Shown: in pieces, positions 22,245 through 60,074 of the stretch
Layout: the number at the start of each line of letters is the position of its first letter
Numbering within the stretch: the first letter of the stretch is position 1
Source of the DNA: Candidatus Multivorans sp.
GTDB lineage: Bacteria; Acidobacteriota; Thermoanaerobaculia; Multivoradales; Multivoraceae
NCBI GenBank assembly: GCA_965224025.1
Contig: OZ245033.1
Coordinates: 576,001 to 640,000, forward strand
Length of the DNA stretch: 64,000 nucleotides
Direction of reading: 5' to 3'
Translations under genes and position numbers: made by a program
The notes under the pieces: model-generated
The model's database searches: none
Seen by the model: the letters and a program-made list of their open reading frames with translations, nothing else
Told to the model about the DNA's origin: nothing

Positions 22245-22249
22245 GCCGC

Positions 22250-22696
22250 TCAGTTGCCCTCAGACGCAAGCCACGCCTCGGTCTCGACGACGATCAGCTC
22301 GCGATAGTCGCCCCGCATCTCCCAGGTACCCATGAAGCCCTTGGGCACGAGAAAGGTGTCGCCCGCCTTGTAGGTCGCCTTGTCCCCGTCGACGTGAGTC
22401 AGCGTGACTTCCCCGTCCAGCACCAACACGAACTCGTCATACGGGAACGGAAACGGGATATCCAGGAGAGCCGGCGCCGCGGCGTAGATGGCCACGACCA
22501 CTTCCCCTTGATGGAGGATGCTCTGCCAATGCTCGCTCTTGCCCTCCAGGACCAACTCGGCCGGGAACGGCTCCGCGCTCTCGAGCTGGGCCCGAAGCAA
22601 CTTCCCCGCGTCGAGCGGAAGGATCTCGGGAGCGGCAAACGCCTGCGAGGGCGACAGGATGCACAGCAGGACGGCGAATCGACAGAACACCTTCAT
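22250..22696 (-). CDS. secreted cupin (DUF861/EutQ-like)
   Basis: DEFVLVLDGEVTL...YKAGDTFLVPKGFMGTW; signal peptide. Confidence 0.8.
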   Translation of the reverse strand: MKVFCRFAVLLCILSPSQAFAAPEILPLDAGKLLRAQLESAEPFPAELVLEGKSEHWQSILHQGEVVVAIYAAAPALLDIPFPFPYDEFVLVLDGEVTLTHVDGDKATYKAGDTFLVPKGFMGTWEMRGDYRELIVVETEAWLASEGN

Positions 22697-22779
22697 CAGG
22701 GAGCCTCCAGGTGTGCGCCTGAGCGCAGCGGGAGAATTGTCTGGCGTCAACAAAGGACGACGCACGATATCCAAACCGC

Positions 22780-22850
22780 GGAGCCGGCCTTGCGGCCGGC
22801 GCGTCTACCTGGCCGCCCACGGCGGCAGTCGGCGAGGACGCCGGCGCACC
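22780..22850 (+). repeat. REP/MITE-like copy interrupted by IS110 (continues at 24481-24489)
   Basis: GGAGCCGGCCTTGCGGCCGGCGCGT..CCTGGCCGCC..GGCGGCAG..GCGCACC|CAGTACGGC aligns with 52740-52820. Confidence 0.8.
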
Positions 22851-22864
22851 TGTACCTTTCCGGG

Positions 22865-23140
22865 ATGCATTCTGGCGTGTCGTTGAGAGAGGTGGAATGG
22901 ACCAGTAGCCGGACCGGCAGCTTCCGCAGCCGAGACCGCCGGTCGGTTGCGTCTCCGGCCTGCCGGAGTCACTGAAGGAAAGTCGGCAAGCAGCCAGGAG
23001 CGACCACCGGCGTACTGTGCTTCGAGCACCTGGCTGGGACCCGTGCCCTGGCTGCTTTGCCGCGTTGGACGCCCAGTGGAGAGTCAGTGCCTTAGAGCAC
23101 CAGTACAGGTACGGGCAGGCAACGCGGCATGCCGACCAGG
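22865..23140 (+). ncRNA. putative IS110 bridge RNA
   Basis: 5' stem-loop 22914-22966; target loop closed by CAGCCAGG/CCTGGCTG with guides 23007-23015 and 23034-23038; donor loop closed by CGCGTTG/CAACGCG with guides 23076-23085 and 23103-23109; boundaries approximate. Confidence 0.8.
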
Positions 23141-23171
23141 CAACACTACCGCAAGGGAGAAGGAGGACGAG

Positions 23172-24424
23172 ATGATCAGGACGTGGTTCGCCGGCGTGGA
23201 CTGGGGGTCCGAAACCCACCATGTGTGTTTGCTGGATCGGGACGGCAAGGTGAGGGGGGAGCGGGCGTTCGACCACAGCGGCAAGGGACTTGCCGCCATG
23301 GCCGACTGGCTCCTTGGACATACCCGACCGACGTCTCCGGACGAGATCGGCGTCGCCATCGAGGTGCCGCACGGACCGGTGGTCGAGACTCTCCTGGAGC
23401 GGGGCTTCGCCGTGCATTCGATCAACCCCAAGCAGCTCGACCGCTTCAGGGACCGCTTCTCCGTCGCCGGCGCCAAGGATGACCGCCGCGATGCACGGGC
23501 GCTCGCCGCCGCGCTTCGCACCGACCCCGAGTGCCTGAACCGCGTGCAACCATCCGATGCAGCCATCGTGATGCTGCGCGAGGTGTCCCGCGGCCGCAAG
23601 CAGTTGGTCGGCCAGAAGAACCGCCTGGAGAACCAGGTCCGCGACCAGCTCTGGCGCTACTACCCGCAGTTTCTCGCCGTGGTCAAGAACGAGGTGTCGG
23701 CGCCCTTCGCGCTGGCCTTGTGGCGACTGGCGCCGACCCCCGGCAAGGCTCGACGGCTGCGCGAAGCCACGCTCGCCAAACTGCTCAAGGAACACCGCAT
23801 CCGGCGCCTGACCTCCGCCCAACTGCGCGATCAACTGCGGGCCGAGCCGATCGCCGTTTCCCCGGACACCGTTAAGGCCGCCGTCGAACACATAGGACTC
23901 CTCCGGCCGGTGCTCGACACCGTCTGCCGCCAACTCGCCGACGCCGACAAGCGGCTGGAGCGGATGACCCGCGCACTCGAGGCCCCGGCCCAACGGGAAA
24001 ACGACGACGACTCCCCTAAGCCGAGCGACGCCGCCATCCTCAGGTCGCTGCCCGGACTCGGCAAGGTCGGCCTCGCCACCCTGCTCTCCGAGGCCGATCA
24101 AAGCCTGGGCCGCAGAGACCACGAGGCACTGCGTTGCCTCTGCGGAGTGGCGCCGGTGACCGTCAAGTCCGGCAAGAAGCTCATCGTCATGCGACGACTC
24201 GCCGCCAACGAACACCTCAGCGACGCCGTCTATCACTGGGGACGAGTCGCCATCCAGCATGACCCGATCAGCCGCGCCAAGTACGACGCCATGAAAGCCC
24301 AGGGAAAAACGCACGGACGCGCCATCAGACAACTCGTCGACCGACTCCTCGGCGTCGCCTGCGCCATGCTCCGAGGCCGACTCTCTTCGACCCCAACAAG
24401 CGATGCCATGCCCAGGTCGCATGA
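23172..24424 (+). CDS. IS110-family DEDD recombinase/transposase (1-nt frameshift near the C-terminus)
   Basis: AGVDWG, AIEVP, AKDDRRDA, SLPGLG, CGVAPVTVKSGK; RBS AAGGAGG; a typical tail TLFDP...* lies in the shifted frame at 24380-24424. Confidence 0.9.
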
Positions 24425-24459
24425 CCTCCCTGACCCGCAGCAGCCTCCCCAAAACACAC

Positions 24460-24465
24460 TTGCTA
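24460..24465 (+). promoter_or_regulatory. -35 half of the IS110 circle-junction promoter
   Basis: TTGCTA in the right end lies exactly 17 nt from TACCTT (22853-22858) when the ends are joined through one CC core. Confidence 0.75.
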
Positions 24466-24566
24466 AAGGGTGGAGAGTCCCAGTACGGCCCGTCGACGTT
24501 TGTCTGACGCACAACAGCCGCTCGATAGAGATAGCCTCGTTCATTCAAAACCGAAGGAGAACTCCC

Positions 24567-25481
24567 ATGAGCCATCGAGTCGTTCGTCTCTCCGGATCCC
24601 TGGGCGCCGAGGTCCACGATCTGCCGCTGGCCGAGGTCGGCCCCGACGAGGCCGCGACGATCCGGGCGTTGCTGCTGGACCACCAGGTCCTGTTCTTTCC
24701 CGACCAGCACCTGACCGTGGAGCAGCACGTGAAGTTCGGGCAGCACTTCGGCGAGCTCGAAGGGCACCCGCACCTGAACAACCCGTTCCTCGACCACCCC
24801 GAGGTGTTCGAGCTGGTGGCGACCCGCGGTGGCGTCGCCGACGAGTGGCACAGCGACATCAGCTTCCAGGAGAGCCCGTCGGTGATGGCGATCCTGAACA
24901 TGGTCAAATGCCCCGAGGTCGGCGGCGACACGATGTGGGCGAACATGTACAAGGCGTACGAGGAGCTGTCGCCGCCACTGCAGGAACTCTGCGAGGGCCT
25001 GACCGCGCTCCACGACGCGACCCCGCACGGCAAGCCGGAGAGGATGACGATCCACCCGGTAGTCCGGGTGCACCCGGAGACCGGCCGCAAGTCGCTGTTC
25101 GTCAACGAGCACTTCACCCGCCGCATCGTCGAGCTCAGCCACGAGGAGAGCGACCACCTGCTCGGCTACCTGACCCGCTGGGCGACGAAGACGCGCTTCA
25201 CCGTCCGCTACCGCTGGCAGCAGGGCACCCTCGCCATGTGGGACAACCGCTGCACCCAACACTTCGTGCTGAACGACTTCGACGAGGAGCGGATCATCCA
25301 GCGGGTCACCGTGATGGGCGACGAGGTCGAGGGAGCGAGCGAGCCCCGCTGGGCGCCCTACGTGCGCGCCCGGCACGCCGGCGCCACCAGCCGCTACGAC
25401 CGGCAGCTCAACAAGTACCTCAAGCGCACCGTCCAGTCGCTTGAGTCGAACGCAAAGAAGGAAGTCGCGCTGGAGATGTAG
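24567..25481 (+). CDS. TauD/TfdA-family alpha-ketoglutarate dioxygenase
   Basis: LGAEV, WHSD, GGDTMWAN, HPVVRVHPETGRKSLFVN, WDNRCTQH; own RBS AAGGAG. Confidence 0.92.
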   Translation: MSHRVVRLSGSLGAEVHDLPLAEVGPDEAATIRALLLDHQVLFFPDQHLTVEQHVKFGQHFGELEGHPHLNNPFLDHPEVFELVATRGGVADEWHSDISFQESPSVMAILNMVKCPEVGGDTMWANMYKAYEELSPPLQELCEGLTALHDATPHGKPERMTIHPVVRVHPETGRKSLFVNEHFTRRIVELSHEESDHLLGYLTRWATKTRFTVRYRWQQGTLAMWDNRCTQHFVLNDFDEERIIQRVTVMGDEVEGASEPRWAPYVRARHAGATSRYDRQLNKYLKRTVQSLESNAKKEVALEM

Positions 25482-25484
25482 GGC

Positions 25485-26546
25485 GTGCGAGCACTCACCG
25501 CCCTGCTTCTCACCGTTGCCTTCGGCCCGGGCCTGGCGCAGGGCCAGCCCGCCGAACAGTGCACCCCCGAAGGCGCAAGCACCCAAATGCCGCGCAGCGC
25601 CAGCGCTTACGCGGCGATGTGCGAGCCCCACCTGGGCGTGGCGCCGACCGTCGACTGCAGCCAGGGCGCGCGCATCCGCATCCGGCAGGATGGCCAGGAA
25701 ATCTTCGAGGACCCGGGGCTCCACGCCTGCGACGACGGCAGCCTCCAGATCGGCGACTGCATGCCGGGCTCGAGCCTTCAGCGCCACGAGGGCAGGAACG
25801 CCGACGGCACCCCGCGTCCCGAGGTCGTCTGGGTGAGCTTCTGCCGCCACGACGGGCGGGACGATGTCTTCAACGTCGACATCGGCGACTCGGTCCAGAT
25901 GATCGGCTACAACGTCGAAACCGGCGCCACCTGCTTCTTCGAGTCAGGCGACAACAGCCCCTGGACCCACATCGGCGAGAACAACCGGCTGCTCGGCGTA
26001 TTGCCGAGTCCCGACGACCCGGAGTTCGACGACGCGTACGTCCCTGCTGGAGCCATCCAGTGCGTCCGCTGCCACCAGGCGGACCCGTTCATCCACAACC
26101 CCTGGATCAAGTCGGCGCGACTTCCCGAGAATCCGCGCCAGCCCGTCGTCCCGGTCCTTCCCGGTCCGAACCCGCCCTACTACGTCGTCGGCGCTCCGAC
26201 CTGGGACATGCGGACGATCCACATCGAGGGCAACGGTTGTCTCGGCTGCCACCGGGCCGGCATGGAGACGCTGGAGGAGTTCACCGGTGACTTCTGGGAC
26301 CCCAACGAGCACATGCCGCCCCACGATCCGGGCTCACTGACCGCGGACCTCGAGGCGCTCCAGCAGTGCTGGACCGACGGCCCGGAGAACACTCCCGGCT
26401 GCGAGTGGGTCGTTCCACCGGCCGGCGAGTGCAGCGGCGGCGGCGTGGGGCCGGACTATCCCCACGCGGCCAAGGGCTTCAATCGCGGTCCCAAGAGTAG
26501 GGGGCACGGCTCGGGCAAGCGCTGGATGAAGCAGGAAGAGAAGTAG
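25485..26546 (+). CDS. secreted Cys-rich protein with two CxxCH motifs (putative diheme cytochrome c)
   Basis: Signal peptide; CVRCH and CLGCH; 3 bp downstream of the TauD-family gene. Confidence 0.7.
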   Translation: MRALTALLLTVAFGPGLAQGQPAEQCTPEGASTQMPRSASAYAAMCEPHLGVAPTVDCSQGARIRIRQDGQEIFEDPGLHACDDGSLQIGDCMPGSSLQRHEGRNADGTPRPEVVWVSFCRHDGRDDVFNVDIGDSVQMIGYNVETGATCFFESGDNSPWTHIGENNRLLGVLPSPDDPEFDDAYVPAGAIQCVRCHQADPFIHNPWIKSARLPENPRQPVVPVLPGPNPPYYVVGAPTWDMRTIHIEGNGCLGCHRAGMETLEEFTGDFWDPNEHMPPHDPGSLTADLEALQQCWTDGPENTPGCEWVVPPAGECSGGGVGPDYPHAAKGFNRGPKSRGHGSGKRWMKQEEK

Positions 26547-26569
26547 CGGCCGGTCTGGCGGGAGCCGGT

Positions 26570-27430
26570 CAGGACGAGGAGCCAGCGAAGTCGCCGACGC
26601 CAGCGCGCAGGCGAGCGCCCGCCCCGGCTGTCCGGGCGCCTCCGCCCACCGGGCCGCGACGTGCCCGTCCGGCCGCACGAGCAGAGCGCCCGACTCGGTG
26701 ACACCCAGCAAGACTCGGATCTGATCCGGGTCCCTGGGGCTGATCGGCGCGTGGGCCAGCAGGGACGATCCGAGTTCGTCGACGTGCGCCCGCCAGGCGC
26801 CCGGGTCGACGGTCACCAGGACGAACCCGGTGCCGACGAGGTCGAGACTGCTGCGTCCGTCGGTCAACCACAGGTGCGGGAAGCGATGGCCCGGCCGGCC
26901 AGTGGGCACGTAGTCGATCACGGGATCGGGCGGCCGCGGCGCTGGCGCGCCGTCGGGGACCATCGCGGGACCGCCGTAGGCGTAGCCGAGTTCAAGGCCG
27001 GCGAAGTTGCCGTAGCGCACCGCGGCGCGCACGGCGTCCGCCGGCGAGAGTCCGCCCGCGTGGTTGCCGGTGGCGGCGGCCGACACGCCGCCCACGAGTC
27101 GCGAGTTGTCGAGCGAGCGAGCGGTGTTCTCGACCGCCACCGGTCGCCGCTCGACCTCGTAGGTGTCGTGAAGCGACGGCGAGGCAACGCCGCGGAGCAC
27201 CAACGCGAGCTTCCAGGCCAGGTTGTCGATGTCCTGCAGCCCGGTGTTCATCCCGAAGCCGCCGGTGGAGGCATCTGATGCGCGGCGTCCCCGGCCAGGA
27301 ACACGCGGCCTCGCCGAAAGTGCTTCGACACGGTGGCGTACATGGTCCAGTAGTTGAACGACAGGATGTCGAGCTCGGGGACGCTGCCGGCCACCGCCTC
27401 GCGGATCCAGTTCGCGCACCACGCCGGGTC
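26570..27430 (-). pseudogene. FAD-dependent monooxygenase (FAD_binding_3) C-terminal remnant
   Basis: GRVFLAGDAAH, frameshift near 27265, GGFGMNTGLQDIDNLAWKL, DTYEVERRPV, RPGHRFPH, LLVRPDGHVA; no N-terminal GxGxxG region. Confidence 0.75.
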
Positions 27431-27543
27431 GACCTTCGCTCGCTCCCGATCCGTGCCGCCGAAGGGAATCTGGCTGAGCCACCGTCGCCGGCCGTCGGGG
27501 ACAACGGCCGACCTGATCGCTCGGCGCGACCAACTGCTGGGCG

Positions 27544-27557
27544 CCGGCGCACCCAGT
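27544..27557 (+). repeat. short REP-like copy identical to the reconstituted IS110 target
   Basis: CCGGCGCACCCAGT, 14/14 match to 22841-22850 + 24481-24484. Confidence 0.65.
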
Positions 27558-27663
27558 GTGCGTAGATGTCGTTACTCGTCCTCGCCGTCGTCACCAGGGA
27601 CGTACCAGATCGGCGACGACCACGCCCGCTCCTGGATCGTGGCCGGCAGGCCGGGCTTCGGCG

Positions 27664-28383
27664 CTACTCCCGCCCGGATCGCGTCCCACGTCGACCAGCG
27701 ACAGGTCGGGTTCCGCAGGACGCGCACGTAGTAGAAGGCGCGCTGGTGATCAGGGTCGGCATCAGGACCCCGGCGGTGGCGTGGAGCACGACGGCCCGCT
27801 CGGTGACCACCGCGAGGTAGTCGAGCATGCCGATGCCTGCTTCGGCCAGATCAGCCGAGAACGTCTCGCCGCCGAGACCGCCCTGGACGCCGACCAGCAC
27901 CGGCGTCCCGGCGGCGCCGAAAGTGACGGACGTGGACTGGACCATCATGCCGAGCATCACCGCGGCGGCAGCCGGGAAGCCGAGCGCGACCAGAAACGGC
28001 ACCGTGACCGCCGCCGACGTCCCGAACCCGGCGGCCCCCTCGATGCAGGAGCCGAAGAGCCAGCAGACGATGACCACCTGGACCCGCCGGTCGTCGCTCA
28101 GCCCGTGAAACGAGCGCCTGATCGCGTCGACGCCGCCGGAGCGCTCCAGCGTGTGCAGGAGCAGGATCGCGCCGAAGATGATGAACAGCAGGTCGAAGGT
28201 CAGGAACAGGCCCTGGATCGACGCCCCGGCGATGCGGGCGATCGGCATCTCCCAGATCAGGAGCGCGACCAGAACGGCCGCGGCGTATGCCGCCGGCATG
28301 GCCCGCCGGGCCGGCACCCGGAAGCCGATCAGCAGGATCGCGCCCAGCGCGATCGGGAACAGGGTGAGCAGGGCTGTGGTCAA
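27664..28383 (-). pseudogene. L-lactate permease, C-terminally truncated
   Basis: IIFGAILLL, DRRVQVVIVCWLFGSCIEGAAGFGT, VTFGAAGTP; similarity ends near 27750, about 40% of the usual length. Confidence 0.8.
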
Positions 28384-28529
28384 AGGCCGAACCTCATCCG
28401 CATCGGCTCTCCTTCTCGAGTTGGGAAGTGTTCATGTTGGCCGCGCACTTGGGAGTGCGGACGTGTTGCCCACATCCGCCCGCAGCGAGGTCTTTTGGAG
28501 GTTGCGTAGAGAGTGGTAGCGACGGCACA

Positions 28530-52739: not shown

Positions 52740-53083
52740 GGAGCCGGCCTCCGGCCGGCGCGTTTCCTGGCCGCCTTCGCCGGCAGCGGACCAGAAGGTC
52801 CGCGCACCCAGAGATACGGCGCGGGTCTGGCGAGGCTCTCTACACAAACGACACGGTCTTACCGCCGCCACGAGGAGAAGGTGCCGGCCTGCGGCCGGCC
52901 GGTGGTCTGGCCGCCTTCGGCGGCAGCGGACCGGAAGGTCCGCGCACCCAGAGCGCCACCTTTCCCGGATGGAGAGTCTCTACTGCAGATCCGCCACTTG
53001 AAGTGACGCCATGACGGTTGCAGAACAGAAGCGCGCTCTCGTTGCAGCGTATCTCTGGGTGCGCGGACCTTCTGGTCCGCATC
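52740..53083. repeat. cluster of three REP/MITE-like copies
   Basis: 52740-52820 (+), 52880-52953 (+), 53048-53083 (-); core GCGGACC(A/G)GAAGGTCCGCGCACCCAGAG. Confidence 0.88.
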
Positions 53084-59939: not shown

Positions 59940-59955
59940 CCCTGGAGCCGCGCCA

Positions 59956-60074
59956 GTGGGTGCGCCGGCGCCGTCGGCGGCATCCGCTCGCAGCGACGCT
60001 ATGTTGGTTGCAGCAGCGAGTATCGCCGGCACCGGCGCCGTACCTGTCGGTGCGCGGGCCTTCTGGCCCGCATC
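59956..60074 (-). repeat. two degenerate REP-like copies
   Basis: GTGGGTGCGCCGG (59956-59968) and GGTGCGCGGGCCTTCTGGCCCGCATC (60049-60074). Confidence 0.65.

Follow-up and report, generated by a model that had tools for sequence, protein, structure and literature searches.

A 64,000-nt stretch of DNA from the acidobacterium Candidatus Multivorans sp. (hereafter the window, C1:576001-640000 of a 5.14 Mb genome in three contigs) harbours an insertion sequence (IS) of the IS110 family, and we consider it highly probable (about 0.9) that a guide RNA encoded in the left end of this IS110-subgroup element directs its insertion into one subtype of a repetitive extragenic palindromic (REP)-like repeat. 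The element body spans 22851-24478 on the plus strand (1628 bp), beginning with TGTACC and ending with GGAGAGT at 24478. Its left flank closes with CCGGCGCA followed by CC (22841-22850), and on the right side CC (24479-24480) precedes CAGT (24481-24484). Junction alignments assign the CC to a core, with a left copy at 22849-22850 (+) and a right copy at 24479-24480 (+), and CAGT to the right target; CC is present at both junctions in all 14 full-length copies found in the genome. A first, sequence-only reading of the window had proposed that excision of the element restores a repeat unit collinear with 52740-52820, and this was borne out, as the 71-nt left flank (22780-22850) is identical to the unit at 52741-52810 in 57 of 74 alignment columns and presents three hairpins in the same order. 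The left part of the interrupted unit runs from 22780 to 22848 (+), and the left target CCGGCGCA (22841-22848) overlaps the 3' arm of its third hairpin (CGGCG-AGGA-CGCCG). The intact unit used as reference (52741-52811, +) is of the TCCGCGCA subtype, which is mismatched to the guide of this element.

The 14 full-length copies are 97.4-99.2% identical to the window copy and are accompanied in the genome by one split copy (~15 kb, across contig ends) and three fragments. We listed all copies with their flanks and sought insertions outside the repeat, but no left junction lies outside CCGGCG[C/T]ACC (0/17): the 14 full copies, the split copy and two remnants all follow GCCGGCG[C/T]ACC, 12 of them with C and five with T. 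At the right junctions, CCCAG (13) or CCCGG (2) comes next in 15 of 15 cases. On neither side are the flanks of the 14 copies related past the repeat: left flanks diverge beyond ~25-35 nt and right flanks beyond 4-6 nt, and the copies are therefore separate insertions. The shared flanks might instead have arisen by copying of the element together with its surroundings, through segmental duplication or recombination between repeats and without any site-specific insertion. Four copies (the GGAG-loop subtype with T) do share ~25 nt of identical left flank, and the split copy and the solo fragments show that rearrangement occurs, but copying of flanks is very improbable given that the divergence past the repeat unit holds at 14/14 loci, that the shared stretch does not exceed the repeat in length and that the same pattern is seen at other loci in other genomes.

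Occupancy differs sharply between the subtypes of the repeat. We counted sites genome-wide as the eight left-target bases followed by CC and C[A/G]G, and found 74 sites of the CCGGCG[C/T]A type (including the occupied ones), 59 of the CCCGCGCA type and 42 of the TCCGCGCA type. Insertions reside in 12 sites reading CCGGCGCA (51 empty) and in five reading CCGGCGTA (six empty), while all CCCGCGCA and TCCGCGCA sites are empty. Thus, 17/74 sites of the guide-matching subtype are occupied versus 0/101 for the other two combined (Fisher p=1.3e-7), and the difference persists when the guide-matching subtype is compared with the one-mismatch subtype alone (CCCGCGCA, 0/59; p=2.5e-5). These counts agree with the earlier suggestion that subtypes vary in susceptibility. 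The accompanying claim that TCCGCGCACCCAG, with its two mismatches to the target, is the commonest subtype applies within the window, where it makes up four of six intact GCGCACCCAG units, but not genome-wide. Occupancy of T-type relative to C-type sites hinges on the site definition (p=0.026 or p=0.11 by two counts), and we treat such a difference as unproven.

The 5' non-coding end of the element offers a candidate for the molecule that makes this choice. Single-sequence folding of 22985-23125 predicts two modules, each with an outer stem, an internal loop and an inner hairpin. The first, putatively target-binding module (22985-23061, +) is supported by the single-sequence fold, by a consensus fold and by loops that vary with the flanks; its outer stem pairs 22985-23001 with 23045-23061 and shows compensatory changes in the consensus, and its inner hairpin lies at 23017-23029 (+). 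On the 5' side of the first loop, the predicted left target guide CCGGCGTACT (23007-23016, +) repeats the top strand of the flank, matching directly eight of the nine bases of CCGGCGCAC, while position 7 is U in the guide and C in the flank, a possible G-U wobble. On the 3' side, the right target guide (23030-23039, +) is complementary to CC and CAG. The second module, seen in the single-sequence fold, would form the donor-binding loop (23062-23125, +): the left donor guide on its 5' side (23076-23086, +) repeats the right end of the element at 24470-24479, the right donor guide on its 3' side (23101-23112, +) is complementary to CC and TGTAC, the first five bases of the left end, and the inner hairpin between them (23087-23100, +) carries a compensatory change from CG to UA in seven of 24 sequences. 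In the consensus fold, computed from these 24 sequences (23 relatives besides the window), the first module retains its outer stem and both modules retain their inner hairpins; nine of 24 predicted pairs persist through two-sided changes, and the variable columns are those of the loops.

To this complementarity between loops and flanks is added covariation across relatives. A scan for relatives of the recombinase encoded by the element yielded 80 loci with 23 guide types, in which the scaffolds are conserved and the loops differ; the closest named relatives of the window are metagenome-assembled genomes labelled Candidatus Multivorans, Thermoanaerobaculia and Vicinamibacterales, all Acidobacteriota. 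At the 77 loci with a called left flank, the left guide matches its own flank at 9/9 positions in 30, at 8/9 in 21 and at 7/9 in 22, whereas guides paired with flanks of other lineages mostly reach 3-5/9, with 34 of 455 such pairs reaching 8 or 9. The right guide matches its own flank at 7/7 positions in 34 and at 6/7 in 18 of 66 loci. These own-flank tallies slightly understate the matches, since the left end of one locus (L021) was set at an internal TGTAC. Complementarity and covariation together point to RNA guidance of insertion, and they favour the proposal of the sequence-only reading that the repeat is used in an RNA-guided manner.

Recognition could alternatively lie with the recombinase protein, which would read the repeat by its sequence or hairpin shape, the likeness between loops and flanks being incidental or only regulatory. 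A perfect stem of at least 5 bp stands beside the target at 14/17 occupied sites versus 33/57 empty matching sites, a trend that is not significant (p=0.087), and the target stem-loop of ISPpu10 raises the efficiency of insertion (10.64898/2026.03.19.712850). Yet three of the 17 occupied sites lack a perfect stem, stem-bearing units of the other subtypes are never used (0/84), and across at least 23 guide types the loops vary with the flanks against a conserved background of protein scaffold and RNA stems. We therefore hold recognition by the protein to be very improbable, and retain guidance by the left-end RNA as the explanation of site choice.

Within the genus, the bridge RNA core was detected at E<=1e-20 in 13 of 41 genomes searched, the window's own included, and 40 further loci were taken from the genomes that bear it. 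The left guide ACGGCGCA is found with flanks reading CCGGCGCACC in 32 of 32 cases and CUCCGCGCA with flanks reading CCCGCGCACC in three of three, while single loci pair GUCCGCGCA, together with a right guide reading CAGAGAG, with the flank GTCCGCGCACC (1/1) and AUCGGCGCA with GTCGGCGCACC (1/1). For each of the stem subtypes CCGGCG, TCGGCG, CCCGCG/TCCGCG and GTCCGCG (tail AGAGA), at least one genome carries a guide variant that fits. As the guides of sister lineages fit the other subtypes, those that are empty here are used elsewhere by elements with a fitting guide. One may tentatively see here a single IS110 lineage and a hairpin repeat family without REP-associated tyrosine transposase (RAYT) co-diversifying within one acidobacterial genus, although we rate this somewhat below even odds; if true, it would be a natural record of guide reprogramming, from which one could learn how mismatches are tolerated and what the target hairpin contributes outside Proteobacteria. 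A U in the guide may widen the range of targets by wobble, as hinted by position 7 of the guide, which is either U or C in this genome, and by the distal U in CUCCGCGCA. In this genome and two close relatives, T-type sites account for 4/9 copies with a U guide versus 2/26 copies with a C guide (p=0.027, from copies that are not independent).

The repeat itself behaves as a REP family, with short GC-rich hairpins, a common tail, many copies and covariation in the stem. Its subtypes, GCCGGC(C)/(G)GCCGGC, CGGACC/GGTCCG and GCGGGCC/GGCCCGC, share the tail GCACCCAG, and a perfect stem of at least 5 bp is present at 131 of 175 sites of the four main classes. Differences between subtypes fall in the stem of the last hairpin, where they are compensated in the opposite arm; the guide thus reads a part of the repeat that varies among subtypes, and the restriction of insertions in this genome to the CCGGCG subtype would follow from the guide reading the stem sequence. 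We call the repeat REP-like because no RAYT was found: a search for the Y1 transposase domain (PF01797) returned no matches in the window's own genome (100% complete), while the control search matched six of 14 reference genomes.

The lack of RAYT matches would suit a scenario in which the element itself makes or spreads the repeat family, as footprints or miniature derivatives, all the more so as precise excision would restore a target. Such an origin is nonetheless very unlikely. The repeat units carry no element end sequence and number more than 170 versus 17 junctions, and two abundant subtypes mismatch the only guide of the genome, in which tblastn at E<=1e-3 detected no second IS110 lineage aimed at other subtypes. 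Moreover, exact matches of 24 nt to the tail of the repeat occur in one genome (G006) in which no bridge RNA was detected at E<=1e-20, and this argues that the repeat is independent of the element.

Two other repeat families came to light in the same genome. One is longer and ends in the same CCGGCGCACCCAG tail; its units consist of a hairpin (GTGCGCCCG-loop-CGGGCGCAC) followed by GGATGGCACG and are found, for example, at G000:C1 positions 229498, 283514, 1605776, 1738960, 2662229 and 2681650, one unit of the family holding the element. The other is an unrelated repeat of ~73 nt with more than 50 copies of 80-93% identity (e.g. G000:C1:551959-552031).

The recombinase gene (23172-24424, +) was assigned by two domain matches and by alignment to IS621 chain 8wt6_A. 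The open reading frame (ORF) from 23172 matches DEDD_Tnp_IS110 (PF01548) over profile positions 1-155 of 155 (E=1.5e-32) and Transposase_20 (PF02371) with E=1.1e-12. The alignment to IS621 is weak (E=3.6e-9 over two stretches), but the catalytic-loop Ser-Gly is conserved, as are the first Asp and the DxxD motif, the KSG of the query aligning with the ESG of IS621. In IS621, ESG corresponds to S241-G242, and the roles of the aligned catalytic residues have been described (PMC11208158). An intact copy encodes 417 aa, and 10 of 14 full copies give a full-length match to this 417-aa protein.

These parts can be assembled into a mechanism. The element would excise as a circle in which the right end is joined to the left end across the CC core, bringing a -35 and a -10 box together into a promoter: judged from sequence only, TTGCTA (-35-like) at 24460-24465 (+) would in a circle lie 17 nt upstream of TACCTT (-10-like) at 22853-22858. 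Consistent with this, a TTGNNN hexamer stands at a constant distance from the right end in 20 of 20 elements (the window copy and 19 relatives), and the sequence upstream of the hexamer differs. The junction promoter would drive a bridge RNA of ~140 nt or more together with the recombinase, which would bind this RNA; the target would be the 3' arm and tail of one stem subtype of the REP-like repeat, and the DEDD/serine recombinase would exchange strands at the CC core. The element may still be active in this genome.

Several observations weigh against this account. Pairing at the second core position is imperfect, with a U in the left target guide opposite G (wobble) and an A in the left donor guide opposite G (mismatch), and at most sites the right target guide fits only CC and CAG. 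The outer stem of the donor module was not recovered in the 24-sequence consensus fold, and a scan of 22600-24700 against Rfam 15 found no bridge RNA family, the sole match being a chance microRNA (E=0.44). Guide and own flank differ in five of the 14 copies: in three, a U guide sits in a C site, which is compatible with wobble, while in the other two a C guide sits in a T-type site, a mismatch. Likewise, three of five insertions in one relative genome have two distal mismatches to their own left guide, and the same pair of mismatches between guide and flank recurs at one locus of another relative genome. Both the mismatched insertions and the C-guide copies in T sites would be accounted for if other copies acted in trans or if the sequences changed later. 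The window copy is itself damaged: its left end has lost ~78 nt near 22911/22912, a segment present in 12 of 14 copies, and the loss of one nucleotide between 24379 and 24380 abolishes the stop codon of the recombinase (24422-24424 in intact copies), leaving a frameshifted tail. With these two lesions, it would probably depend on other copies in trans.

The sequence-only reading had also pointed to an empty perfect site 3 kb from the element. The 14-mer reconstituted from the two sides of the insertion has indeed exactly one other occurrence in the window, at 27544-27557 (+), and this site is unoccupied in the assembly, as it also is in a contig of a public run that spans 25391-27656 with zero differences. 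It is not an intact unit, however, but a 5'-truncated remnant in a decayed region: likeness to the repeat is limited to 27539-27560 (+) and comprises half the loop, the 3' arm and the tail, with the 5' arm replaced by unrelated sequence. At the remnant, a 24-nt match of 100% identity was found in genome G006. In ISPpu10, insertion is reportedly reduced but not abolished when the target stem is lost (10.64898/2026.03.19.712850). Allowing up to two mismatches, the 14-mer has seven matches in the window versus 1.46 expected, and none of 100 shuffles reaches seven. Of two near matches noted earlier, the one at about 59956 was confirmed at 59955-59968 on the minus strand with a single mismatch in the right-target part (CAC for CAG), while the one at about 2507-2517 holds only for the left half and core (CCGGCGCACC at ~2507-2516), which are followed by GAC.

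The remnant sits in a 75-nt gap with a gene fragment on either side. One is a flavin adenine dinucleotide (FAD)-hydroxylase fragment, with homology from profile position 217 of 349 near 27499 and a frameshift near 27270; the other, whose stop codon is at 27572-27574, corresponds to the last 54 positions of DUF3604, and beyond it lies an N-terminal fragment of a lactate permease (first 167 positions). The region 26550-28440 as a whole is a minus-strand patchwork of gene fragments, the hydroxylase lacking ~216 N-terminal profile positions, and in another genome (G012) the DUF3604 and lactate permease pieces are ~2.7 kb apart. Contigs of runs X9, X10 and X11 join 25481 to 27500, skipping 2018 nt, at a depth of 50-91 that exceeds that of this strain's contigs; they may stem from a related, more abundant strain without the ORF 25485-26546 and the hydroxylase fragment. 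Other public-run contigs end 19 nt into the element, at 22869. Joints in run X1 bypass the element (22793 to 24519 and 22249 to 24555), but their sides are short (25-37 nt) and of 90% likeness; they come from a relative and were not used.

Decay of the element was also seen elsewhere. In public-run contigs, the loose end at 22911 carries the longer form of the left end. The left-end segment that lost ~78 nt in the window copy has also been shortened, independently and by ~90 nt, in the copy at C1:3853422-3855079; this segment, which forms two similar hairpins in the other 12 copies, seems dispensable or unstable. The 1-nt deletion in the recombinase tail is shared by three copies at different loci (window 24379/24380, C1:534874 and C1:3854984), and this allele has thus spread, by transposition, trans-mobilisation or gene conversion. 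The split copy (G000:C1:13083-13635 and C1:5044239-5045399) is broken at ~623/626 of the query, reflecting an insertion into the element or a rearrangement. An isolated fragment (G000:C1:4322367-4322573) retains both bridge RNA loops without element ends or recombinase gene, and a left-end-like match at C1:550060, considered as a second element, was rejected as a 14-nt remnant.

Within the window, the occupied unit is extragenic, lying between a cupin-like gene (minus strand, start at ~22697 as read by eye) and a tauD-family gene that starts at 24567. Without its stop codon, the recombinase frame of the window copy extends to 25481, through the right end and an 86-nt spacer and on into tauD in the same frame, giving an ORF of 844 aa (22947-25481, +). 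This fusion is probably due to chance, but could couple the translation or transcription of tauD to the element.

Bridge RNA mechanism and REP targets have been described for IS621 in PMC11208160, which states, as the sequence-only reading had noted, that IS621 targets REP elements. Like IS621, the element has a DEDD RuvC-like domain and a serine Tnp domain, a 2-nt core at both junctions, and a left-end RNA with target and donor loops whose 5' guide equals the left half of the top strand and whose 3' guide is complementary to the right half. Natural REP targets are a further likeness, and the promoter predicted here from sequence would, as in IS621, be rebuilt where the two ends join (same source). 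It differs from IS621 of Escherichia coli in its acidobacterial host, Candidatus Multivorans, in its weakly similar and longer protein (417 versus 326 aa), in its core (CC versus CT) and in a much longer left end (321 nt in the window copy, ~400 nt in full copies). With ISPpu10/ISPpu9 of Pseudomonas putida it shares the placement of every insertion in one repeat (10.64898/2026.03.19.712850; PMC12288879), which is intergenic at the unit occupied in the window, and with ISPpu10 a left target that is the 3' arm of a GC-rich target stem-loop (10.64898/2026.03.19.712850), here at 14/17 occupied sites. Unlike in ISPpu10/ISPpu9, enrichment of the stem at occupied sites is not significant (p=0.087), the core is CC and no RAYT was found in this genome. 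The genus contains several guide sublineages for different stem subtypes of one repeat. The guide RNA is encoded 3' of the recombinase gene in the IS1111 subgroup, whereas here it is encoded 5' of that gene. The protein family and the RNA-guided principle are nevertheless shared with IS1111-subgroup elements that use seekRNA (PMC13604230).

Mechanism and target choice are thus those known for IS621 and ISPpu9/ISPpu10, and the element leaves the current understanding of the mechanism unchanged. What it offers is a compact natural series, with several guide variants and the stem subtypes of one repeat within one genus, at sites that are empty, occupied or hairpin-less, which could serve to test mismatch rules and to probe the 'dual-match' hairpin idea. 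It also illustrates that an RNA-guided target can be deduced from sequence alone and that such a deduction survives a whole-genome test. Compared with the systems described in Escherichia coli and Pseudomonas putida, it extends bridge-RNA targeting of hairpin repeats to the Acidobacteriota (Thermoanaerobaculia).

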